Below, piece by piece: positions 1-49,020 of a stretch of 64,000 nucleotides of DNA. The first letter of the stretch is position 1; each line of letters opens with the position of its first letter. Origin of the DNA: a virus. Where the stretch lies: IMG/VR virus record IMGVR_UViG_3300012920_000022, positions 1-64,000 of that record; one strand, 5' to 3'. A program made the translations under genes and the position numbers. The notes beneath the pieces are model-generated. The model was not told where the DNA came from, ran no database searches, and was given only the letters and a program-made list of their open reading frames with translations.

Positions 1-340
1 AGAATTACATATGGATAATAATCATATAACTTACTTACCAGAATCCATTGGTAACCTGGGAAATTTAAGAGCATTATATTTATATGGGAATGAGATTACC
101 CATTTACCTGAATCCATTGGTAACCTGGGAAATTTAATGGATTTGTATGTAGACAGCAATAAAATTACTAAATTACCTGATAGCATGGGCAATTTAAGAA
201 ATCTAACCCGTTTATTTGTTCATAATAATAATTTAGATGAATACCCAAAATTTGTTGACAAGTTGGTAAATTTACAAAAATTTACCCATAGACAAAATAA
301 TTATAATAAAATTTATCACAGTAGAAGTATTAACTTATGA
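1..340 (+). CDS. Leucine-rich repeat protein, C-terminal part (5' end lies outside the window)
   Basis: 23-aa repeats LPESIGNLGNLxxLYLxxNxIT; the frame is open from position 2 (ELH-MDNN), so ATG 11 is internal. Confidence 0.9.
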   Translation, partial: ELHMDNNHITYLPESIGNLGNLRALYLYGNEITHLPESIGNLGNLMDLYVDSNKITKLPDSMGNLRNLTRLFVHNNNLDEYPKFVDKLVNLQKFTHRQNNYNKIYHSRSINL

Positions 341-7813: not shown

Positions 7814-8668
7814 TTAGATTCTAATTATATTACTACTCCTAAATAATCTATATTCTGGAATATATTTATTTAGGAGATTACTAATAGTGTATACAAAATA
7901 CTCCCCATTAGATACCTTGGTACTATTATATAAAACTATGGTATTGGGTAATGATTTTTGGATTTCATATAAATCATGTTTTTCTATAATTTCATTACCA
8001 CCATTGCCCAAATCCAATATTTTAAGATTTTTGAGGTTAACTATCCATTGTGGAAATTCCAGTAATCCTCTACAATGGAATGCCAAATATTCCAAATTAC
8101 CAAGATTGAGCATTGATGAGGGCAATTCTGGATATATTCCATTACCCAGAATTAATACTCTTAGTTTATTCAAATTACCAATTGATTCTGGAATTTTGTT
8201 CATTTTGTTGGATAATCCAGTATTCAAATATATTAATTCACTAAGATTGCCTATATTTTTGGGTATTATTTTGATTTTATTACCACCAAAATCAAAATAT
8301 CTAAGCTTCGATAATTTAGTTATACTTTTTGGTAAACTGGTTATATTAGCAAAATTTAAATCTAACCATTCCAAATTAATAAAATTACTTATATGTGATG
8401 GTATAGTCCTATAAATAGTTTCTTTGACATGTTTATTTATATTTAATGATATAAACTTATCATTAAATATAAAATGTTCTGCACATTTAAATGGATAATT
8501 TAATATCTTTTCTTTTAATTCATCATTTATATTGAGAATGTTACTTGATAATATATGGAATGCTAAATCAATATTGTTATCATCATTTGAATTTAATAAT
8601 CTCATTAAATTATTAAATTCAATAGATTCCTCATTTATAAATTGACTAAAAGATGCAATTTGATTCAT
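7814..8668 (-). CDS. LRR protein with capsid-targeting-like leader
   Basis: MNQIASFSQFINE leader, LLNSNDDNNIDLAF cap, repeats such as IPESIGNLNKLRVL. Confidence 0.85.
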   Translation of the reverse strand: MNQIASFSQFINEESIEFNNLMRLLNSNDDNNIDLAFHILSSNILNINDELKEKILNYPFKCAEHFIFNDKFISLNINKHVKETIYRTIPSHISNFINLEWLDLNFANITSLPKSITKLSKLRYFDFGGNKIKIIPKNIGNLSELIYLNTGLSNKMNKIPESIGNLNKLRVLILGNGIYPELPSSMLNLGNLEYLAFHCRGLLEFPQWIVNLKNLKILDLGNGGNEIIEKHDLYEIQKSLPNTIVLYNSTKVSNGEYFVYTISNLLNKYIPEYRLFRSSNIIRI

Positions 8669-11982: not shown

Positions 11983-13881
11983 CTATTGAAATTTAGATGG
12001 TTTATTATATTTTAAACTATCTTTACCTATGTCACCCAAATCATAATTTGGTGAACAATTATCTATTATATGAGTTTTACTAGAATTAGTTACATGAATG
12101 CTAGTTAAAATAGTATTATGATAATCTTCATTAACATAATTTTTCCACATTCTCATGTAGCCAATATATGATGATGTGGAAATATATTCTATGGGTAATT
12201 CATCAAATTTTAGGCAATCTGGTTCTATATTTTTATTATCAGTATATATCCTGTTAAGTTTGTTGATATATTTTTCTTCACCATCATATAAATTATAGAT
12301 ATCCAAGAATATTTTTGAATATTCTTTACTAATTGATAACACAATTCCATTCCATTTGTTAAATATATCTCCAACTTCAAATAATAAATAATCACCATTT
12401 AAATTTATAACTAAATGATTATTTGAATAATCCACAAATATTCCATTATCCTGATAAATTTTAATAATAGGATACGACTTATCATTGAAATTTATATTGC
12501 AATCTACATCTACATCACTATTTGAAATAATTACAAATGATATATTATCAACAATTTCAACAATTTTATATAATTGGTCACAAATTGTGACATATTCCAA
12601 TATTAACAAATGACAGTGATTAAATTCACTGTTCATCGTTACTTTTACTTTGTTGGGAGAAATTCTTTCAGATCCAGCCACAATAAAACTATAATCGGAT
12701 ACTGCATTTGCATATGATACATCTTTTATTGGATGAAACCACATAGATAATGTAATATCATAAGGTTTCACAGATTTGTTGAATCTTATAGCTATATCAT
12801 CTTTCCCCAATTTGGTCATATCATAATATGAATTCATTATGATATTAGAATTATTAGTGACTTCACATAATTCTATGTTGATCTCCTGATTTATATAGTT
12901 TCTTATATGGTCTTTATCGGATGATATGGGTGTGTTTTGAATGGGATTAGATATATCTTCCATTTCTGATAATAATAAATCATTGAATAAATCGTGTCTA
13001 CTATTAGATATTTCCCCTATAGAATTTATTATATCATCAGATTTGTCTATTGCAACTTCATCATCATATTTTACGAGGTTGAGTACATGATATAACGGCA
13101 AGCCATTTATGCCATTTTTGATATAGTGTGATTTAACACTATACATTCTTCTAAATTTTTTTATGTATATATAGTCTTTATTTCTAGGTTCATAATTACC
13201 ACCAAAAATTTCCATGAAATACACCATATCTATGAATATTTCGGTTTCCTCCCACTCATAACCCCATTCACTATATATAGGTCTCTCATCGGGAAAATCA
13301 TTATTCTCCCTAATAATTCTTATACATTTATTATCAACAGTATTATATAGACTATACTCACTTAAAAACACATCAACAGTATCCATATCTGGTTCTGTTC
13401 TAAAATAATGGCAGTCTATTACTGAAGATTTGTTAATCAAATAACTCATCTGCCTTTCAACAGAATAATTATTGAATAGGTCATTAATATTAGATATGCA
13501 CATGTTTAATGAAACTTCCATATTGCCTATTACTATGGAAGTTTCATTAGTGGGTAAATCAGTGTGTTTTGCTCTATCAACATTAATAATTAATTCATGT
13601 ATGGTTATCGATGATGAATCAGATAATAAGGTATATTTTATTTTAAAATAATGATTTTTTGGGATTAACCTAAGGTTGTTATTATTTAAAGGAATGTATG
13701 GAGACCATAATACTTGGTCGTGTGACCAAGAAAGCTGATATTGTAAGTCACAATCACCAGATAAATCATGATAATAATCTACAATATCCACGTCATTGGA
13801 TAAGAAAAATCTAAAAATATAGGATTGATCCTTTTTATCTAATTTTATATTTAAATTTTTATATTCAAATTCATAATTCAT
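11983..13881 (-). CDS. Neck protein, gp14-like, with C-terminal extension
   Basis: YFRTEPD..DVFLSEYSL and F.EIFG..EPRNKDYIYI..RMYSV gp14-type motifs. Confidence 0.55.
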   Translation of the reverse strand: MNYEFEYKNLNIKLDKKDQSYIFRFFLSNDVDIVDYYHDLSGDCDLQYQLSWSHDQVLWSPYIPLNNNNLRLIPKNHYFKIKYTLLSDSSSITIHELIINVDRAKHTDLPTNETSIVIGNMEVSLNMCISNINDLFNNYSVERQMSYLINKSSVIDCHYFRTEPDMDTVDVFLSEYSLYNTVDNKCIRIIRENNDFPDERPIYSEWGYEWEETEIFIDMVYFMEIFGGNYEPRNKDYIYIKKFRRMYSVKSHYIKNGINGLPLYHVLNLVKYDDEVAIDKSDDIINSIGEISNSRHDLFNDLLLSEMEDISNPIQNTPISSDKDHIRNYINQEINIELCEVTNNSNIIMNSYYDMTKLGKDDIAIRFNKSVKPYDITLSMWFHPIKDVSYANAVSDYSFIVAGSERISPNKVKVTMNSEFNHCHLLILEYVTICDQLYKIVEIVDNISFVIISNSDVDVDCNINFNDKSYPIIKIYQDNGIFVDYSNNHLVINLNGDYLLFEVGDIFNKWNGIVLSISKEYSKIFLDIYNLYDGEEKYINKLNRIYTDNKNIEPDCLKFDELPIEYISTSSYIGYMRMWKNYVNEDYHNTILTSIHVTNSSKTHIIDNCSPNYDLGDIGKDSLKYNKPSKFQ

Positions 13882-22358: not shown

Positions 22359-22882
22359 ATGAATTACTTTATTCAGGAAATAAAATCAGCGTGTCAATTG
22401 CTATAAAGGTAATATTCAGTAGCACAAAATCATATGATAAATATGCATCCTTATTAAAGGAGTATGCAGATTTGTTAAATGTGGATTACGATATAGAAGA
22501 GCATCTGATTTTTATGATGACAAATGATGACATTATAATTAGAGACAGGGTAGATGAATATGAAAAATTGCATATCATAAAAAGTATTAATGCGATTAAA
22601 TTTGATAAATCATCAAATATAACTAGACTACCCCCATGGTTGCTTAAATTTAATCTAAGATCACTTATGGTTGAATCTGATGAAATCACCGAATTATCAC
22701 CAATTGATTTACAAATGTTATCTAATATGAAAGAATTAGATTTTTTTCATGCTGTTGATGTTTACAATGAAAAACTCACTAATTATATGAAATCACTAGG
22801 TTTTGTGTCACATATCCCAGGTGTGTATACAAAAGATAGCTCACCATTCCATAAGGTTGCAAAATTTCAAAAACTATTTTAA
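22343..22882 (+). CDS. Short LRR-family protein, tandem copy 1
   Basis: IDELLYSGN cap, YEKLH, LPPWLLKF and MKSLGF shared with copies 2-4. Confidence 0.75.
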   Translation: MAINIDELLYSGNKISVSIAIKVIFSSTKSYDKYASLLKEYADLLNVDYDIEEHLIFMMTNDDIIIRDRVDEYEKLHIIKSINAIKFDKSSNITRLPPWLLKFNLRSLMVESDEITELSPIDLQMLSNMKELDFFHAVDVYNEKLTNYMKSLGFVSHIPGVYTKDSSPFHKVAKFQKLF

Positions 22883-22887
22883 TAAAG

Positions 22888-23436
22888 ATGAGTAATATAG
22901 ATAGATTATTATACTCAGATGATCACGCAAACATCGCTTTGGCTATAGAAATCATATATGGTAATAGAAATATGTATAACCATTACATATCCATGATAAC
23001 TGATTATGCAAAGATAGTTCATATGAAATTCAATAGTAAAGATGATGCCATAGAACTAGTTGCAAACTCCACATTGCACATGTATGGAGATCTATGTCAA
23101 TATGAAAAATTGCATAGATTTAAAAATATTAAGGAAATCCATATTAAATATTCGGAAATCAAGAAATTACCATCATGGTTACCTAAATTCGATAACATAG
23201 AATCGATAACAATAGGTGATACCAATATAAAAAAATTCACCAGCAAAGATTTAAACATAATATCCAAACTAAAAAATTTAAATCACATATCAGCAAATAA
23301 TATTAGTGATATTAGATTCGGTAAACACATGAAAAATTTGGGATTTACTGGTGGAATGTCTATGTATTCAAAAAAAGATTCTAATTACTATAAATGTGTT
23401 AAGATACATACTAACAGTAGATATGGTAAATATTGA
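22888..23436 (+). CDS. Short LRR-family protein, tandem copy 2
   Basis: IDRLLYSDDHANIALA, YEKLH, LPSWLPKFDN, MKNLGF. Confidence 0.75.
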   Translation: MSNIDRLLYSDDHANIALAIEIIYGNRNMYNHYISMITDYAKIVHMKFNSKDDAIELVANSTLHMYGDLCQYEKLHRFKNIKEIHIKYSEIKKLPSWLPKFDNIESITIGDTNIKKFTSKDLNIISKLKNLNHISANNISDIRFGKHMKNLGFTGGMSMYSKKDSNYYKCVKIHTNSRYGKY

Positions 23437-23930
23437 AAAATTGTTGTTTTCAAATGACATCCAAAACACAATGGTGGGGATAGATATATTATTAAATAAC
23501 CCAGATGTGTTTGATACTTATACTGAAAAATTAAACGCATGTGGAGAAATATTTGGGATAGTTGATATTAATGAAAACAACTTATTAAAGTTAGTATCGG
23601 AATTTACCACCGTGATAATAGATGATAATATGGGTAGTATTAAAAAATTACATATACTAAAAAACATAAAAACAATTATATTAAACTCTGATAAAATTAA
23701 GAGATTACCAGGATGGTTATCAAATTTTGATAATTTAGAATCTCTGATTTTTAATAAAACTAATATAACCAAATTATCAATTAAAGAATTAAATACGATA
23801 TCTAGATTAAAAAAGTTAAAACGTATATTAGTGGATTTTTAGTGATAGGAAATTCATATCATACATAGAAAATTTGGGATTTGTTGGTAATGGATTATTA
23901 TTTAAAAAATTAGACAACACTCATGGATAG
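23423..23930 (+). pseudogene. Short LRR-family protein, copy 3, frameshifted at a T5 tract (0-frame stops at 23842; homologous tail continues in +1 frame to 23930)
   Basis: GAT TTT TAG stop; +1 frame reads FSDRKFISYIENLGFVGNGLLFKK, matching the paralogue C-termini. Confidence 0.65.
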
Positions 23931-31920: not shown

Positions 31921-31975
31921 AAATATTGCAAAGACCATACCAACATATAACATATGACAGGGTGTCATATGTTAT
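31921..31975 (-). promoter_or_regulatory. Palindrome + sigma54-like promoter module, copy 1 (drives the ECF sigma gene)
   Basis: Minus strand: ATATGACAcccTGTCATAT-gttatatg-TTGGTATGGTCTTTGCAATATTT. Confidence 0.7.
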
Positions 31976-32396
31976 TGATTAGCAAATAAAATTTATCTAT
32001 GATATTATTTGAATTAAAGGAGGGATATAGATAAAAACTATTCATATATCGTTGTTCGTTTTTGGTCAATTTATTCATAACCATATAATCTTCATTTTCA
32101 CAATTAATGTGGTCAATGTAGAAAGTTACATTAAATTTAATATGAGAATCATATGAAACACTTACTATATCATTTATATAACCAATATATCTAAGTGGTT
32201 TAGGATCTACATATATTCCCAAAATAACTTTAATTTTTTCTACATGGGGCGATTTCATAAATGTTCTATACAATATGGTGGGTATAGAATCAATTATGTT
32301 ATCCTCGTTATGTATATAACGAGGATAACGATTTATATCAGCATTGGGTGGAGTAGATGTATATAACTTAAAATTGTGTGACCCTACTATTTTCAT
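31965..32396 (-). CDS. Hypothetical protein downstream of purZ
   Basis: 143-aa ORF overlapping the purZ 3' end. Confidence 0.55.
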   Translation of the reverse strand: MKIVGSHNFKLYTSTPPNADINRYPRYIHNEDNIIDSIPTILYRTFMKSPHVEKIKVILGIYVDPKPLRYIGYINDIVSVSYDSHIKFNVTFYIDHINCENEDYMVMNKLTKNEQRYMNSFYLYPSFNSNNIIDKFYLLINNI

Positions 32397-33615
32397 CTAA
32401 AAATGTTTTATTATTAAGCAATACCATATCATCGGTATCAGCACCAGTTCCTACATATGATAATATCACATTATCATATGGATTAATATCTCTCATAATC
32501 TCATTTAGCCATTCTTTAGATTTGTTAGATAATTCCAAATAATCTGTAACACCTTCATCTTCCCCATTAACATAATTCATAAAGTTAATGGATATATGAA
32601 TAGTATGATTAGTCATGTTATGTGCAATGGCACTATGCATATTATCAAATGAGAAATTAAATACTCTTCTCGGTAGCTTGGTTAAGGTTGTAGTTTCCAT
32701 AACAGGTCTACCAACATTACTTGATATTTGATCCCAGGTAATTTCTTCCTGATCTTGATATCCTCCACCACTATCACTGTCTATCACTTCATACTCATAT
32801 TCATTACTTTGTACCTGATCCCAAGTTAAATGATTACCAGTAACTTTGTCTATATATTTTTTAGAACATATTCTTATGGGATATGTTCTAAAGTTGATTA
32901 TAACATCACCCAGATATGAAGGAGGTACCATCATATCATCAAAACCCCCAGCTATGGTGGAATTTCTGGAAGTAGTGTTGGGGTAAAAATCAGAGATTCC
33001 ATAACTCAACTGGAATCCTTGGGGAATTTCCATAACCCCAGATTCTCCTTGGTTCAATCTGCAAATTATATCATGTCCCACGTTACAAAGATATGGCTTT
33101 AACCAATCCACATCTCTTGCCAATAATAAATTAGACTTCCTCATGATTTTCCTGGCTCTTGCAGATCCAGAACCACTACATGTACTACCAGTTTTAATAG
33201 TACCATTGTGTTGTAATTCATTATTCAATAAATTACCTTCAAAATCATGGGTTCCTTTTTCATACCCTATATCTATATCTTGTATTATGGGTGCAAGATA
33301 GTCAATACCAACATCGATACCATTTTTTTCGGCTATTGATATCTCTTCTTTCAATGCTTGTAAATCTATCGCAGATCCATGACCAGCATATACTTTACTA
33401 ACAGAATTTGGTATTACTATAGCTGAGCTTAAATGTTTAAGCACAGTAGTTGTGCCACCAATTACTACTGTATGACTAGCATTGCTAGATCCATTACTAC
33501 AAGCAAAATCAAATTCATGATTTTTAAAAATATAAGAACCAATTTTAGCTTTACCAGATGATCCGGCTCCCCCATCTAATATGGCTAATATTTTACCTTT
33601 TTTTACTATACTCAT
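32368..33615 (-). CDS. purZ: PurZ, 2-amino-2'-deoxyadenylosuccinate synthase (PurA family)
   Basis: GSSGK (Ser in place of the PurA Asp), NASHT, GSTCSGSGSA, QGF.LS..FYP.TTSR, RTYPIRI, TTLTKLPRRVFNFS, NFMNY (no TKLD GTP motif). Confidence 0.8.
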   Translation of the reverse strand: MSIVKKGKILAILDGGAGSSGKAKIGSYIFKNHEFDFACSNGSSNASHTVVIGGTTTVLKHLSSAIVIPNSVSKVYAGHGSAIDLQALKEEISIAEKNGIDVGIDYLAPIIQDIDIGYEKGTHDFEGNLLNNELQHNGTIKTGSTCSGSGSARARKIMRKSNLLLARDVDWLKPYLCNVGHDIICRLNQGESGVMEIPQGFQLSYGISDFYPNTTSRNSTIAGGFDDMMVPPSYLGDVIINFRTYPIRICSKKYIDKVTGNHLTWDQVQSNEYEYEVIDSDSGGGYQDQEEITWDQISSNVGRPVMETTTLTKLPRRVFNFSFDNMHSAIAHNMTNHTIHISINFMNYVNGEDEGVTDYLELSNKSKEWLNEIMRDINPYDNVILSYVGTGADTDDMVLLNNKTFLDENSRVTQF

Positions 33616-33721: not shown

Positions 33722-34234
33722 TCAGTGACTAGGTATTGAACCAGTATCACGGAAATCATCGATGAGTTGAGTAAGTTGATCACTATCATATTCTTTAGAA
33801 TCACCATCCATGAATGCAATGTGCAATGTGCCACCATCATCCAAATGCCAATCATCTACAACGCCATCACTGCTATCACTAATTGATTTAACAAAATCCC
33901 CAATTAGTTCATTATATTCATTATGCTCATCAATATAATCTGAGAAACGCGGTATTAATTCTGGTTTATTTTCATTCATATTGAAAAACACTCTGAAATC
34001 ATTGAATCCACCAGCTAATGCAACTTTATCAAGTATTTTTAAAAATTTATCATCAGCTTCACCCACATAATCATCAGTATCGTATATATCATAATCTGGG
34101 TAATCTGCCATATGCTGATTAACTAAATCATTAAACATATGGCTCATTGTATCGCTAATATTATCAGATTTAAATTTACCATCTGGAAGATTAATATTGA
34201 ATATATTAGCGATATCTGATTTGGATATTTTCAT
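33722..34234 (-). CDS. Acidic hypothetical protein
   Basis: 170 aa, D/E-rich. Confidence 0.65.
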   Translation of the reverse strand: MKISKSDIANIFNINLPDGKFKSDNISDTMSHMFNDLVNQHMADYPDYDIYDTDDYVGEADDKFLKILDKVALAGGFNDFRVFFNMNENKPELIPRFSDYIDEHNEYNELIGDFVKSISDSSDGVVDDWHLDDGGTLHIAFMDGDSKEYDSDQLTQLIDDFRDTGSIPSH

Positions 34235-36804: not shown

Positions 36805-37221
36805 TTAAAATATGGATTTAATAATAAAATAAATTGATGCTATAATTGTTGCATCAATAATAATAAATATGAGCAATTTTATTTTATTGATAGGGAATAT
36901 TGGGACATATTTTATCAATATTTTATGATCACCTTGATCATTATTATCATCCACGTATACATAATCATTCAATCTCACTAAACCTATCAATGATGCACGA
37001 ATAATATATTCGTGCATCATTGATAGGTAATTATTAAGTATATCCACATGCTTATCAACTGGTTTGTCATGGTTTATGGTATAAACAGAATAAATCATAC
37101 CAAATATATCGAAATTCCACCCATAGAATGAACCATAATCATGATCTTCAGCGCATATTATAAGTGAATTCCTAGCATGCCAATATAGCATAAAAGATTT
37201 TATAAAATAAAATATAGTCAT
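36805..37221 (-). CDS. Hypothetical protein with C-terminal TM segment
   Basis: 138 aa, hydrophobic C-terminus. Confidence 0.6.
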   Translation of the reverse strand: MTIFYFIKSFMLYWHARNSLIICAEDHDYGSFYGWNFDIFGMIYSVYTINHDKPVDKHVDILNNYLSMMHEYIIRASLIGLVRLNDYVYVDDNNDQGDHKILIKYVPIFPINKIKLLIFIIIDATIIASIYFIIKSIF

Positions 37222-39230
37222 ATTATATCACAATAACCGCCAACACAGGCTAACTCATTTATTAATTCAGTATTATCACCATATTCCTTAATTAAGCTAA
37301 AATCAATATCAACCAACATAGATTTCAATCTATCATACTCAGTTTTGTCTATTTTGGCTAATGGGGCTTGATTATATGGCTCACGATTTAATGGTAGTAT
37401 GGTTATTCCAGAATAATAGTCTCGATTCTGCCATAACCAAGATTTAACAGAACCCCATTCACTATCAACATAAACAGTAGCTGATACATTATTAGTGTTT
37501 TTACCACTTCTATGACCAGCACACACCCATTCTGAATAAAAAAACTTTATTCTGTTCAAAGTATCTAGTGGTGATTCATGGGATATTCCATCAATGGTGT
37601 TGGGTGATACCATTGGATAATAGAAAATTGCAGTAGCTGATGGATTTATCATACAATCTTCTATTAAATCCGGCATAGAATTTAATAGTACATCATATAT
37701 TGGTAAATGCTTTTTTATTCTAATGGCTCTCTTAATATATTTGGAGTATGGTTCGTGAATACCAGAACCAGTAAGACCAGCCATTAATGTGGTTGTACCT
37801 TCGGGTTTTATGCAGGTGGTTCTAGAAGCTCTATTTATACCCAATATATCAGATATTCTGTCATTTTCTTCATTAACTACTCTAGCAGCATCACCGACAT
37901 TAAGCGACATTACATTACCATTACATATGCCAGTCATAGACACTCCTATCAAATATTCACTCTCAGTTATATTTTTCCAGTTTTTCCTTATGTAGTGGAA
38001 GGAGGTAAATCCGGCTTGTAGAGTTCCAAAAAAACTAGCTACCTTGGCACGATCATTTAATTCTTTTTGGGTTAGATTATCACCAACATTAATGGTAGTT
38101 AAATTACAAAATTGACCACCATTATTAGAAGTTAGGGATATTTCTCCACATGGATTAGTACCAATAGATATATCATTAGTCCAAAATATTCCAGGTTCAC
38201 CATACCCAGAATCTTTCATCATATCAAAATAATTATCAAACTCATTTTTGGTAACTTCACCTCTTATAAACACACCACTATTATTTGATCTGCTTCGTTG
38301 GGGATGAACTAAATACCAATGTATTTTTTTAGTTTTTTTAATTTGATCAAATGACTCTTTGGTAATATTTAATGTCAGACAATCACTATATGGTCTACTA
38401 TGGTGATTGTCTGACATAATTAAACGACATGAAAATAAGCCATCTGATAATTTACCACATATTTCTATGGATTTTACGTCTAGCATATATTTAGACTTCA
38501 CCATATTTATGTCATCTCTATCGAACAATGAAATCATAGCAGCTTCCCTAACGCCACCAGAATATATGCATTCAGCAATAAAGCAACATATGTCATGAAC
38601 TTCCAAAGTTGTTAATTTTCTACCAACTGCATTGCGTAAAACACCATCAACATGGGTCAAGGTTTTTTCCAAAGGTTCATATCCAGGTGATATGCCACCG
38701 GATTTTGTTATTGGTGATCCTTTAGCCCTAATATCACTATAATCAAATATGGGATAACTATTACCAAACATATATGATTTTATTAGGTACTTAAGACCAT
38801 CAGACCATCCCTCAATGGAATCTTGAACTAAATATCTAATGCTACTATCTGGTTGTTTTATGATCGGAAGTTGATTTACATGGTATGATTGCACACTATA
38901 GCCAACACCAACACCACACAATAATAAAAACATAATCTCATTAAATGATTTATAACTATCAATAGCTATATATGAGCAATTATAGATTTTTATAGGGTTA
39001 ATCTCTATCGGTAATCCGGAAAATTGCAACCCTCTCATGGACGGAAAAACTTTATTTTCATATAGATATTTGCCATTTCTATCTATATCATCAGACAGCA
39101 TAGGATATTTCCGTTTCATCATATCTATATAAGATGAAACGACCTCTGTGTGTGTTTGTCTTCTTCCTTTATTGGCATCATATGATGCATACTTCATGTA
39201 ATTGATTAAATTGGGGAGTAATTCTGACAT
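37218..39230 (-). CDS. nrdJ: Class II (B12-dependent) ribonucleotide reductase
   Basis: PSMRGLQF.G, YNCSY, GVGVGYSVQ, GGVR.AA.ISL, TNPCGEI, FCNL, TTCIKPEGT and C-terminal CVGGYC. Confidence 0.9.
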   Translation of the reverse strand: MSELLPNLINYMKYASYDANKGRRQTHTEVVSSYIDMMKRKYPMLSDDIDRNGKYLYENKVFPSMRGLQFSGLPIEINPIKIYNCSYIAIDSYKSFNEIMFLLLCGVGVGYSVQSYHVNQLPIIKQPDSSIRYLVQDSIEGWSDGLKYLIKSYMFGNSYPIFDYSDIRAKGSPITKSGGISPGYEPLEKTLTHVDGVLRNAVGRKLTTLEVHDICCFIAECIYSGGVREAAMISLFDRDDINMVKSKYMLDVKSIEICGKLSDGLFSCRLIMSDNHHSRPYSDCLTLNITKESFDQIKKTKKIHWYLVHPQRSRSNNSGVFIRGEVTKNEFDNYFDMMKDSGYGEPGIFWTNDISIGTNPCGEISLTSNNGGQFCNLTTINVGDNLTQKELNDRAKVASFFGTLQAGFTSFHYIRKNWKNITESEYLIGVSMTGICNGNVMSLNVGDAARVVNEENDRISDILGINRASRTTCIKPEGTTTLMAGLTGSGIHEPYSKYIKRAIRIKKHLPIYDVLLNSMPDLIEDCMINPSATAIFYYPMVSPNTIDGISHESPLDTLNRIKFFYSEWVCAGHRSGKNTNNVSATVYVDSEWGSVKSWLWQNRDYYSGITILPLNREPYNQAPLAKIDKTEYDRLKSMLVDIDFSLIKEYGDNTELINELACVGGYCDII

Positions 39231-43730: not shown

Positions 43731-44429
43731 ATGACCATTAACAAGGATGATTTGGAAAGTGAGGTATTAGATTTAATAGTTTCCAATAACCCAGATAATA
43801 TTGATAAGGCTTTTCATATTTTACAAAATAATAAAGAATTAATAAACGAAGTTTTATTACCTTTATTACCCAATTACCCATACTATTGTGCGAAATATTG
43901 TATATGTAATGATTTAGTATATTCATTAACACTTCTCGATGATAGTTTTCCAGATTATTTGTTTAATTTACATAACCTTATTAGTATATCAATATATGAA
44001 AGAGGCACAATTAACACATCACTTGACTTTGTGAATAAGTTTCCTAAATTAGAATTTTTGGGTTTAAAGAATTTTGTATTTAGTAAATTTCCCAGATGCC
44101 TGTTTGATCATCCAAATCTTAAAGCCATAGATTTTTCTAATACCAATATATCTGAATTTAATTTTAGATTATCTAAAATTAATACCAATATTGTGTATAT
44201 TAATTTAGATAATACCAATTTAACAGAATTACCAAAATTTTTGTTTGATATTATCCATCTTAGTGAGTTGGATATACACAATAATCCTAATGTAAAATTA
44301 GATGGATTTGATAAATTACATGGATTGGTATCTCTGGGTGTTATTAATTGTGGAATAAATGATATACCTGCGTATATTAATTTACCACCTAGTTTTAAAA
44401 AGCTAAAATTAGGTAATAATTGTTATTAA
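43731..44429 (+). CDS. LRR protein
   Basis: LIVSNNPDNIDKAF cap, YPYYC, repeats such as LDNTNLTELPKFLFDI..LSELDIHNN. Confidence 0.8.
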   Translation: MTINKDDLESEVLDLIVSNNPDNIDKAFHILQNNKELINEVLLPLLPNYPYYCAKYCICNDLVYSLTLLDDSFPDYLFNLHNLISISIYERGTINTSLDFVNKFPKLEFLGLKNFVFSKFPRCLFDHPNLKAIDFSNTNISEFNFRLSKINTNIVYINLDNTNLTELPKFLFDIIHLSELDIHNNPNVKLDGFDKLHGLVSLGVINCGINDIPAYINLPPSFKKLKLGNNCY

Positions 44430-44430
44430 C

Positions 44431-45237
44431 ATGAATAGATTTTCTGGTCATAAAAATAAACTATGTAGTTCTTATTCATTGAATAGATATTATAAACTAT
44501 ACCCCATATCTGATCCTGTAACTGATTTGGGGATACCAAAAGTTTCATTCTCATCATTAAAATACTGGCTAACTACGTTTGGTCTGGTTAATAGTGATTA
44601 TTCTCCCAATTTTTTATATGATAAATTGATGGAAAAAGATCCTGAATTTTTAAATTGTGATACTTATGCATTGATTCATCATAATATGATTGTTAATTCC
44701 AGATCAATATTATACTATGAGATGTTTTCTGAGTTTATACCAACTAAGATAGATCATTTTACCACCAATCATCTACTTAGGTTTATTATCAACAAATATG
44801 GTAACGATAGCAATTATAATACTATTGCTAATGATATTAATATGGCATTAAAATTATACATTGATAACTCATCCCCATTTGATGATAAATTTACCATGAG
44901 TCAACTTAGATTATTAATAATTGATTACATTGATGAAGATAAGATTAATTATTTCAAGATGAACCCATATGTTAATTTATCTTTGAATATTATGCTATAT
45001 GCTATTATATGTCTTTGGGGTGGTAAAAGTATCATATCATTAAAGGAATATTTTAAATCACCATATTCTCCACACATAATATATGGGTTAAATATAGACA
45101 AATCTATGTCTCTATTAACCGAATTATCTAATAAATATAATGGTATAATTATAATTAACCCCCATGATAGGACTATCACCATAAATACTAGTCTGACTTG
45201 TAAAGATATGTTAATTAAATATTTGTGGGATAATTAG
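44431..45237 (+). CDS. DUF4007 (SspB-like) protein, divergent
   Basis: FSGH start, DLG..K...LKYWL..FGL, DP..L..T..LIH, T...DI and SP..I..L motifs. Confidence 0.65.
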   Translation: MNRFSGHKNKLCSSYSLNRYYKLYPISDPVTDLGIPKVSFSSLKYWLTTFGLVNSDYSPNFLYDKLMEKDPEFLNCDTYALIHHNMIVNSRSILYYEMFSEFIPTKIDHFTTNHLLRFIINKYGNDSNYNTIANDINMALKLYIDNSSPFDDKFTMSQLRLLIIDYIDEDKINYFKMNPYVNLSLNIMLYAIICLWGGKSIISLKEYFKSPYSPHIIYGLNIDKSMSLLTELSNKYNGIIIINPHDRTITINTSLTCKDMLIKYLWDN

Positions 45238-48027: not shown

Positions 48028-49020
48028 ATGCATAATCTAGATTTCAATTCCGAAAGAAACACCTATTCTTATATGGGTACACAAAAAGCTTGGCATGGTC
48101 TTGGACAAATAGTAACCGAAGCTAAGACTGCTCAAGAAGCACTGGTACTTTCCAACATGGATTTTGATGTAATAAAAGTCCCTGTTCCAGCTGGTGAAGT
48201 TGAAATAAATGGTGAGAAATTTATGGTTAAAGATCCCACTAAGAATTATGTTATTAGAACTGACACTGCCGAAGTTTTAGGTACTGTTGGTAGTACCTAT
48301 ACAGTACTCCAGAATCGGGATGCATTTAGTTTTTTTGATAATATTGTTGATAAAGATGAAGCAATATACGAAACTGCTGGTGTTATTAGAGGTGGGAGAC
48401 GTATCTGGATTGCTGCTAAGATGCCAAGCTACATAAAAGTTGGTAATGAAGATATTGAGCAATATGTAGTAATTACTAATGGTCATGATGGTAAATCTGG
48501 TTGTACTGCATTCTTAACCCAAGTAAGAATAGTCTGTGAAAATACTTTGAGATATGGTATTAGCAGTGCTATGAATAAAGTTAGTATACCCCACAGAAGT
48601 AAAATTGCTGAAAAAATTAAAATGGCTCATCAAGTTCTTGGCATGTCCAATAAGTACAATGAAGAGATATCCGATATTTGGAATGCCATGGCTAAAAAGC
48701 AGGTCACTGAGAAGATTACCATGGATTATTTGTTAAAATTATACCCCACTCATGAAGATTCTTCTATAGTTACGGTTACCGATAAATTTAGAGAAGATAT
48801 AATGGAATATATCAATTCGGATGCAACTGTTCAAACTAAAGAAACTAAACATACTGTGTGGGGACTTGTTCAGTCTATCAATGGTTGGTATCAACACAAG
48901 AAAAAATACAGACCTACCAGTAATTTCACCGTAGAGGATGTTAAACTTAACAGCATCTGGGATGGATCAACTCAGAAGAAAAATCAACAAGCATTTGATT
49001 TAGCATTAACATTAATATAG
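48028..49020 (+). CDS. DUF932 (TIGR03299 phage/plasmid-like) protein
   Basis: AWHGLG, RTDT..VLG.VG..Y..LQN..AF.FFD, YETAG..GGRRIW, HDG, T.VRIVC.NTL and T.WG motifs. Confidence 0.85.
   Translation: MHNLDFNSERNTYSYMGTQKAWHGLGQIVTEAKTAQEALVLSNMDFDVIKVPVPAGEVEINGEKFMVKDPTKNYVIRTDTAEVLGTVGSTYTVLQNRDAFSFFDNIVDKDEAIYETAGVIRGGRRIWIAAKMPSYIKVGNEDIEQYVVITNGHDGKSGCTAFLTQVRIVCENTLRYGISSAMNKVSIPHRSKIAEKIKMAHQVLGMSNKYNEEISDIWNAMAKKQVTEKITMDYLLKLYPTHEDSSIVTVTDKFREDIMEYINSDATVQTKETKHTVWGLVQSINGWYQHKKKYRPTSNFTVEDVKLNSIWDGSTQKKNQQAFDLALTLI

Follow-up and report, generated by a model that had tools for sequence, protein, structure and literature searches.

Can a large AT-rich phage with a T4-like replication apparatus make the nucleotides of 2-aminoadenine (Z) for its own DNA? 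The question is raised by a gene of the adenylosuccinate synthetase (PurA) family in the virus record IMGVR_UViG_3300012920_000022, a linear IMG/VR contig of 135,755 bases whose first 64 kb (the window) and remaining sequence were both analyzed. Z-containing DNA has so far been associated with small sipho- and podoviruses whose purZ, mazZ, and datZ genes form a compact cluster, usually alongside the DNA polymerase DpoZ (PMC8599892). An earlier note on this DNA had read the gene as a PurZ-type synthase in an unexpected lineage, and had left three options: a dispersed Z pathway read by a T4-type polymerase, partial Z substitution, or a repurposed PurZ. The first of these fits best, and partner genes were found outside the window. 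We propose, with a probability of about 0.65, that a dispersed, extended, and phage-encoded pathway to deoxynucleotides of Z (dZ) takes the place of the purZ-mazZ-datZ cluster in a T4-like lineage.

The purZ-type open reading frame (ORF) is intact and lies within a run of coding genes on the minus strand. Its motifs GSSGK, RTYPIRI, TKLPRRVF, and NFMNY, found at residues 18, 243, 312, and 344, respectively, were placed in a MAFFT alignment of 122 rows, made of the query, 116 full-length representatives, the homolog from Flavobacterium phage MaF61, phiVC8 PurZ, S-2L PurZ, Arthrobacter phage Wayne PurZ0, and E. coli PurA. The substitutions that the earlier note had read from the letters, and the motifs of S-2L PurZ that it had given, are all borne out by this alignment and by the S-2L protein translated from MW334946, which reads GSTRSGAGSA and TTVTKLPRRIFTFS. 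In particular, GSSGK aligns to GDEGK of E. coli PurA, with Ser19 in the column of the catalytic Asp13. This column contains Ser in 112 of the 116 representatives (Gly in two, Lys in one, and a gap in one) and in all 21 rows of the query subclade; a serine is reported there in 100% of phage PurZ proteins, whereas 99% of the PurA group keep the aspartate (PMC12884076, PMC8515928). Ile replaces Thr in YPIRI (YSTRV in E. coli), and Leu replaces Arg in TKLPRR (TGRRRR in E. coli), a loop that is S-2L-like. The latter residue, Leu314, aligns with R303, which in PurA makes contact with the ribose 2'-OH (PMC8342488), and S-2L PurZ likewise has a leucine at this position. NFMNY (344-348) stands in place of the GTP-specificity motif TKLD, aligning with NFCNY in phiVC8, TKLDV in E. 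coli, and TMLDQ in PurZ0. Both PurA hallmarks, Asp13 and the TKLD motif, are missing from the query. Among the residues listed in phiVC8 numbering as distinguishing PurZ from PurA (bioRxiv 2025.10.22.683976), the query retains the equivalents of S14, T262, Y244, W252, and P233 and of F295/Y298, which stack on the adenine of ATP; F12, I34, G256, and S273 are not retained. Across 20 members of the subclade, 28 columns are invariant, including the P-loop, His48, and the Arg pair.

Comparisons with whole families gave a less clear-cut partition. The Pfam model Adenylsucc_synt (PF00709) matched only the N-terminal third of the query (55 bits), and phrog_1211, the PHROG of phage PurZ proteins to which S-2L PurZ, Wayne PurZ0, and the MaF61 protein are also assigned, matched it with 131 bits. 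The top sequence matches among solved structures were phiVC8 PurZ (6fm1/6fko; E = 1e-25) and a PurA of the Pyrococcus horikoshii type (8e-23), followed by S-2L PurZ (3e-17), PurZ0 (1e-6), and E. coli PurA (2.5e-5). Because the NCBIfam models fail to split PurZ from archaeal PurA (scores are given below), residues and tree are needed to decide. In a quick IQ-TREE analysis (77 rows, LG+C20, rooted on E. coli PurA), phiVC8 PurZ, S-2L PurZ, and the query subclade fell into one clade of 68 rows with a Shimodaira–Hasegawa-like approximate likelihood ratio (SH-aLRT) support of 100, within which the query subclade, including MaF61, formed a group of 23 rows (support 99); Wayne PurZ0 and the Gly-type rows lay outside the 68-row clade, as did E. 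coli PurA. An AlphaFold (AF2) model computed from 20 subclade sequences reached a mean confidence (pLDDT) of 91.7, and its leading Foldseek matches were phiVC8 PurZ (6tnh/6fm1), P. horikoshii PurA, S-2L PurZ, and PurZ0, with template modeling (TM) scores, normalized on the target, of 0.83-0.86 to phiVC8 and S-2L PurZ. The modeled fold confirms membership in the short-form family, within which PurZ and archaeal PurA are not separable by fold. Residues, tree, and fold uphold the identity proposed in the earlier note: judged by its sequence, the query is a PurZ-type enzyme, not PurA.

The likeness to the characterized enzymes of Vibrio phage phiVC8 and cyanophage S-2L (6fm1/6tnh, 7odx) extends from the Ser at the Asp13 position and the equivalents of T262, Y244, W252, and P233 to the NFxNY ATP site, the short-form fold, and the position in the tree. 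The query differs from them in that identity is only 26-30%, that it is longer by approximately 60-70 residues, with an insert at approximately 250-280 and a C-terminal extension, and that it is encoded in a large T4-like genome with no adjoining mazZ or datZ and no DpoZ. Wayne PurZ0 (7vf6) shares the fold and the Ser with the query but keeps the GTP-like TMLD. PurZ0 phages use DutZ and DmtZ (PMC12884076), neither of which was among the scanned ORFs of the contig. The archaeal short PurA (P. horikoshii 5k7x/2d7u) scores as well against the query as PurZ does, in both sequence and fold, but uses IMP and GTP according to the title of entry 5k7x, whereas the query has neither Asp13 nor the GTP motif.

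The genome that carries this gene was described from PHROGs and Pfam profile scans, which in the window covered 86 ORFs of at least 70 aa. The T4-like, myovirus-type character seen earlier from the window holds for the whole contig, which encodes a gp23-type capsid protein, a prohead protease, a portal protein, and a gp2-type end protector, together with a gp32-type single-stranded DNA-binding protein, UvsX, the Dda helicase, clamp loaders, RNase H, and a T4-type family-B DNA polymerase (PolB) split into two genes; GroES is also encoded. The halves of the polymerase lie approximately 34 kb apart on opposite strands, and most PolB-type relatives have the same two-gene layout. No PF00476 match was found on the contig, that is, no DpoZ; as S-2L also lacks it (PMC8065100), DpoZ is not obligatory. 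The search for the polymerase family suggested in the earlier note thus returns family B. The estimate of about three-quarters A+T was also sound: GC content is 28.3% over the contig (71.7% A+T), and ranges from 0.27 to 0.32 across 4-kb windows. The label "jumbo", on the other hand, is not borne out: the contig of 135,755 bases is 55% complete according to CheckV, and the complete genomes related by their capsid protein measure 129-167 kb. No DNA nearly identical to the 10 kb around purZ was found in the phage collection. A profile search of genome contigs with the PurZ alignment matched nine contigs of metagenome-assembled genomes, only one of them above 30% identity, and no host assignment was obtained from them.

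Which other steps of a Z pathway does this phage encode? The earlier note had seen no datZ or mazZ in the 64 kb, and neither family was indeed found among the window ORFs; the picture changes with the rest of the contig, where partners of non-classic types are present (table 1). Inside the window, a class II ribonucleotide reductase (RNR) gene lies 3.6 kb from purZ in the same strand block; its product matches TIGR02505 (RTPR) with 208.8 bits, below the cut-off of 340, and probably supplies deoxynucleotides. Outside the window, the contig encodes an adenylosuccinate lyase (PurB), a guanylate kinase (GK) homolog, a MazG-type pyrophosphatase, and an HD phosphohydrolase. Enzymes that convert dSMP (N6-succino-2-amino-2'-deoxyadenylate) into dZMP and dZMP into dZDP had reportedly not been found encoded by phages (PMC8342488, PMC12884076). 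Classic Z phages leave these two steps to the host, whereas our contig encodes homologs of exactly both enzymes. No solved structure matches the MazG-type protein at E ≤ 1. For the HD protein, Atu1052 is the only sequence match among solved structures, and Atu1052 and YfbR-like proteins are the nearest folds. For this reason it was not assigned to DatZ; its matches to S-2L DatZ (pairwise E = 4e-4) and to the DatZ model phrog_7076 (E = 1.2e-4) are confined to the HD motif. The dUTPase, DUF550, and NDT families had no member among the scanned ORFs of the contig, which is 55% complete.

One residue of the GK homolog bears on its likely substrate. Aligned to solved guanylate kinases, this protein has Gln68 at the position of Glu72 of human guanylate kinase (GMPK), and retains the P-loop and the equivalents of S37, R41, R44, Y53, Y81, and T83, which bind the phosphate and ribose of GMP. 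The human residue forms a hydrogen bond with the guanine, and its replacement in E72A leaves no detectable activity (PMC12297293). Used alone as the query against viral contigs, the GK homolog retrieved no relative, and homologs were gathered with the Pfam model. In the 18 homologs from subclade records, the Glu72 column contains Gln in 14, within the motif F(I/L)Q(Y/F/W), Val in three, and Glu in one, while E. coli Gmk and all four solved GKs aligned have Glu there. As controls, six GK regions were fetched and one was dropped as identical to E. coli gmk; among the five that remained, all from phages without a PF00709 gene, three have Glu and two very divergent ones have Ala or Phe. The dropped region (L153; MG065691.1, "UNVERIFIED: Campylobacter phage A11a") is identical over the aligned stretch to gmk of E. 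coli K-12 (tblastn, E = 8e-158), and is probably host or contaminant sequence. The sole Glu-type kinase among the 18 is a second copy in a record whose other copy is of the Gln type. This record (G012; IMG/VR, 126.6 kb) has its two homologs at 124155..124415 and 22780..23250; the Gln-type copy adjoins a MazG-type gene, as on the query contig, whereas the other keeps the canonical Glu, and its match spans one in-frame TAG. The Gln probably represents one inherited change and not 14 independent events. Guanine offers its N1-H and 2-NH2 as hydrogen-bond donors to a carboxylate, whereas a carboxamide would donate to the unprotonated N1 of 2-aminoadenine and accept from its 2-NH2. Judging from these residues, Gln68 would fit 2-aminoadenine or adenine nucleotides better than guanine.

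Relatives of the query PurZ are widespread. A search of representatives returned 79 clusters at E ≤ 1e-30, and a scan of viral contigs returned 211 contigs with a PurZ relative, the best 80 of which were analyzed. Forty-seven of these 80 belong to the query subclade, with identities of 32-45% (plus one partial match at 49%) and contig sizes of up to 341 kb; the remaining 33, at 27-31% identity, are small Z phages of the canonical kind. In the phage collection, the subclade has a single cultured member, MaF61, a 167.8-kb myovirus (PMC13269007) whose ORF141, annotated as "putative adenosuccinate synthetase" (PQ858689), was the best of 101 matching records, with 37% identity over 95% of the query. 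The excerpts of its published description do not mention DNA modification (PMC13269007). Like the query contig, MaF61 encodes PurB, a Gln-type GK, and the HD protein along with a PurZ of the same subclade; it differs in that the MazG-type query has no match in it. Within the subclade, 18 of 49 records form a T4-like set with PolB, including eight of the 12 that are at least 90% complete, and 13 of 49 form a set with a family-A polymerase (PolA), which includes genomes of 250-340 kb. A scan with the capsid protein of the lineage gave 16 loci: all nine contigs of at least 100 kb that share this protein carry purZ, and purZ was found in none of the five fragments tested (out of seven), which are only 14-52% complete and hence uninformative. 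PurZ looks like a core gene of the T4-like lineage. The earlier claim of an unexpected lineage stands as far as the T4-like, myovirus-type context is concerned, but not as a peculiarity of a single genome, since a whole subclade including a cultured phage is involved. In the literature searched, we found no report linking PurZ to myoviruses, jumbo phages, a phage PurB, or a phage GMP kinase, although supplements of the surveys may list large phages; the main text of the two principal surveys of 2025-2026 does not contain the terms jumbo, myovir, family B, or guanylate kinase. Nor do the passages on PurZ in PMC12697855 and PMC8515928 connect it with large or contractile-tailed phages.

Over-long homologs of PurZ (550-890 aa) were also encountered, 11 of 14 of which carry Hint/intein-splicing and/or LAGLIDADG homing-endonuclease inserts (P0002, P0003, P0007, P0013, P0018, P0019, P0023, P0024, P0089, P0132, and P0146). 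The inserts occupy two or more sites, and the query has no intein. Inteins are typically kept in genes under strong selection.

Co-occurrence of the pathway genes was examined in 48 subclade records (47 from IMG/VR plus MaF61). Over whole records, PurB was present in 21, the MazG-type enzyme in 16, GK in 17, and the HD protein in 11. In the eight records with PolB that are at least 90% complete, GK, the MazG-type enzyme (one match being weak), and the HD protein are present in all eight and PurB in seven. The four complete non-PolB genomes have few partners, PurB and MazG occurring only in G018 and DatZ only in G046. PurB is otherwise almost absent from phages: of 50,697 INPHARED records, four yielded homologs, among which are MaF61 and at least one short fragment that has no annotation. 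GK homologs matched 106 records of the phage collection. No T4-like member of the lineage devoid of PurZ, which would have served as a control for the dependence of GK, HD, and MazG on PurZ, was found via the capsid protein. Proximity was assessed by tblastn of the pathway proteins on 10 kb on either side of purZ, with the 33 canonical loci as a positive control. In these, MazZ was found in 27 and DatZ in 30, always within 4 kb of purZ. The large-phage subclade loci gave MazZ in 0/47 and DatZ in 1/47, and instead PurB in 13, the MazG-type enzyme in nine, and GK in six within 10 kb. Five near-identical genomes of 150 kb have purZ, purB, and mazG on the same strand within a span of 6 kb. When every ORF of the contig was screened blindly, the commonest recurring neighbors of purZ over the same 47 loci were PurB (11), RNR (10), a 632-aa ORF (nine), PolB (eight), MazG (eight), and GK (six). 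The single large-phage locus with a classic-looking partner belongs to a PolA-type jumbo phage (IMG/VR genome of 307 kb, 98% complete; L058/G046), whose subclade PurZ (32% identity) is followed 2.7 kb downstream by a true DatZ-family gene (phrog_7076, E = 1e-12). The classic Z cluster of small sipho- and podoviruses, often accompanied by DpoZ, shares with our loci a predicted logic, in which dGMP is turned into a Z nucleotide and the nucleotide pool is biased; the large-phage loci differ in having PurB, a GK homolog, and a different MazG type instead of MazZ and DatZ.

From gene presence, diagnostic residues, phylogeny, co-occurrence, and clustering, the following route can be predicted, in which each substrate assignment, like Z in the DNA itself, is conditional. 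The class II reductase would provide deoxynucleotides, and the MazG-type pyrophosphatase would convert dGTP into dGMP. PurZ would then most likely condense dGMP with aspartate, using ATP or dATP, into dSMP, the committed step toward Z. The phage PurB would release dZMP from dSMP, and the GK homolog, with Gln in place of the guanine-binding Glu, would phosphorylate dZMP to dZDP, from which a host nucleoside diphosphate kinase would make dZTP for incorporation by the split T4-type family-B polymerase. The HD phosphohydrolase conserved in the lineage is a candidate for the removal of dATP or dAMP. On our best reading, the phage-encoded part spans dGTP to dZDP and would be self-sufficient. More tentatively, and with a good deal of doubt, one may extend this to the whole T4-like lineage of 125-170 kb, MaF61 included: its AT-rich genomes would be fully Z-substituted, copied by a split PolB and served by a five-enzyme route of their own (MazG-type enzyme, PurZ, PurB, Glu-to-Gln dZMP kinase, and an HD protein replacing DatZ), with the same PurZ subclade present in a separate PolA-type set of 250-340 kb.

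Several observations weigh against such a route, and some of them point to other explanations. Some concern the removal of dATP, to which complete replacement of dA by dZ is reported to be tied (PMC12697855). No DatZ ortholog was found in the lineage, even in its eight complete PolB-type genomes; phrog_7076 matches the contig and its PolB-type relatives weakly (E = 1e-4 to 3e-3) and nowhere beyond the HD motif, and the fold matches listed for the HD protein do not include DatZ. Nor is the MazG-type enzyme an ortholog of MazZ, a possibility that we discarded (pairwise E = 0.013); it belongs to the large general family phrog_229. Three DNA methyltransferases of N6-adenine type are retained on the contig, and complete replacement in a genome with about 72% A+T would come at a high cost, since roughly half of all nucleotides would have to be drawn through guanine nucleotides. 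One may therefore imagine that the PurZ chemistry is real but that Z is only partial, dATP not being removed, or that dZ nucleotides serve to manipulate the pool or to build a further-modified base. We consider this unlikely, as PurZ can itself consume dATP (PMC8342488), and the HD phosphohydrolase, present in all eight complete PolB-type genomes, could replace DatZ non-orthologously, for which the PurZ0 phages, with DutZ and DmtZ, offer a precedent (PMC12884076). Moreover, five pathway genes kept lineage-wide suggest a heavy and constitutive flux. The co-occurrence counts given above have to be read with some restraint, as the genomes are kin by descent, several being near-copies, and the numbers overstate independent events.

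Other observations call into question the substrate of PurZ itself. A synthetase followed by a lyase is the exact two-step branch from IMP to AMP, and a PurA and PurB pair is also what a module for AMP supply would be expected to look like. The NCBIfam PurZ model NF038379, built on the small-phage PurZ group, gives 129.4 bits (cut-off 300), no better than the 144.8 bits of the archaeal PurA model NF003295 (cut-off 368), and P. horikoshii PurA is an equal fold match. The tree that places the query with PurZ comes from a short search with a single long-branch outgroup and contains no Asp-type archaeal PurA. Phe12 of phiVC8, said to help accommodate the 2-amino group (bioRxiv 2025.10.22.683976), is Ala in the query and in 12 of 21 subclade rows, and Gln68 of the kinase would suit AMP or dAMP as well as dZMP. 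The synthetase and lyase pair, the equal model scores and fold match, and Gln68, together with the high A+T content, the methyltransferases, and the failure to find DatZ, MazZ, and DpoZ, would be accommodated by auxiliary purine metabolism, in which a divergent adenylosuccinate synthetase and PurB make AMP from IMP to feed dATP into ordinary DNA. This is in our view quite improbable, because the query has the Ser of every PurZ where nearly all PurA proteins keep Asp, an ATP-stacking NFxNY in place of the GTP motif, and Leu for the Arg that reads the 2'-OH, and because the tree nests it with PurZ in a branch that excludes PurZ0; in addition, its companions are a GMP-kinase homolog and a MazG-type enzyme, not an adenylate kinase. 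Since the query scores below the curated cut-offs of both models, it might even be seen as the decaying or non-functional remnant of a transferred purZ. This has hardly anything to recommend it in view of the intact reading frame, the confident model, the invariant columns of the subclade, the wide distribution of its relatives, and the inteins kept in most of the long homologs, a pattern typical of genes under strong selection.

Table 1. Coordinates of the purZ-type gene, its putative pathway partners, and other features of the contig (positions in the window are also positions of the contig)
Feature	Location	Coordinates	Strand	Remarks
purZ-type gene, 415 aa, homolog of N6-succino-2-amino-2'-deoxyadenylate synthase	window	32368..33615	-	ORF with ATG start
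Class II (adenosylcobalamin-type, RTPR-like) ribonucleotide reductase	window	37218..39230	-	phrog_367, 340 bits
Adenylosuccinate lyase PurB	outside window	104925..106271		NF006764, 304 bits; PF00206 and PF08328; SSMPHK loop
HD phosphohydrolase	outside window	116189..116914		phrog_318; sub-threshold YfbR-like
MazG-type pyrophosphatase	outside window	134460..134996		profile matches; phrog_229
Guanylate kinase homolog	outside window	134986..135513		profile matches; overlaps MazG-type gene
T4-type family-B DNA polymerase, exonuclease/N-terminal gene	outside window	96490..97944	+	
T4-type family-B DNA polymerase, C-terminal gene	outside window	131541..132719	-	
DNA methyltransferases, N6-adenine/N4-cytosine types	contig	108454..109344, 112456..113286, 121429..122244		N6_Mtase, N6_N4_Mtase, D12 (Dam-like)
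143-aa ORF	window	31965..32396	-	29-base overlap with purZ 3' end; no Pfam/PHROG match
170-aa acidic ORF	window	33722..34234	-	immediately upstream of purZ; no Pfam/PHROG match
632-aa ORF	window	11983-13881	-	no family; homologs within 10 kb of purZ in 9/47 subclade loci
Leucine-rich-repeat copies	window	11-340, 7814-8668, 22888-23842, 43731-44429		phrog_6688/Pfam LRR
Leucine-rich-repeat copies	contig	63334..64125, 66255..68059, 71643..76644, 87293..89850, 126818..127375, 132723..133658		phrog_6688/Pfam LRR
DUF4007 protein	window	44431-45237	+	73.7 bits
DUF932 protein	window	48028-49020	+	185 bits; phrog_1221, 251 bits

The genes that immediately flank purZ on this contig are not conserved neighbors, as homologs of the 143-aa ORF and of the 170-aa ORF were each found near purZ in fewer than three of the 47 clade loci. 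The 632-aa ORF was considered as a large terminase, which comparison ruled out; it is possibly a structural protein resembling the T4 neck protein, and its recurrence near purZ would then reflect synteny rather than the pathway. Elsewhere, the contig contains well over a dozen paralogs with leucine-rich repeats (phrog_6688; Pfam LRR_8/LRR_14), as well as a DUF4007 and a DUF932 protein.

Should the lineage indeed use Z, the trait would reach large phages with contractile tails and T4-type replisomes, Z-DNA genomes might be common to an entire group of big phages, and a family-B replisome would copy ZTGC DNA. PurB and the dZMP kinase would be the first phage-encoded versions of two steps regarded as belonging to the host, and the change of Glu to Gln in the kinase would represent a simple specificity switch that could serve the enzymatic production of dZTP. 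Because MaF61 is in culture, one run of liquid chromatography–mass spectrometry (LC-MS) would make the question of Z in these genomes answerable.

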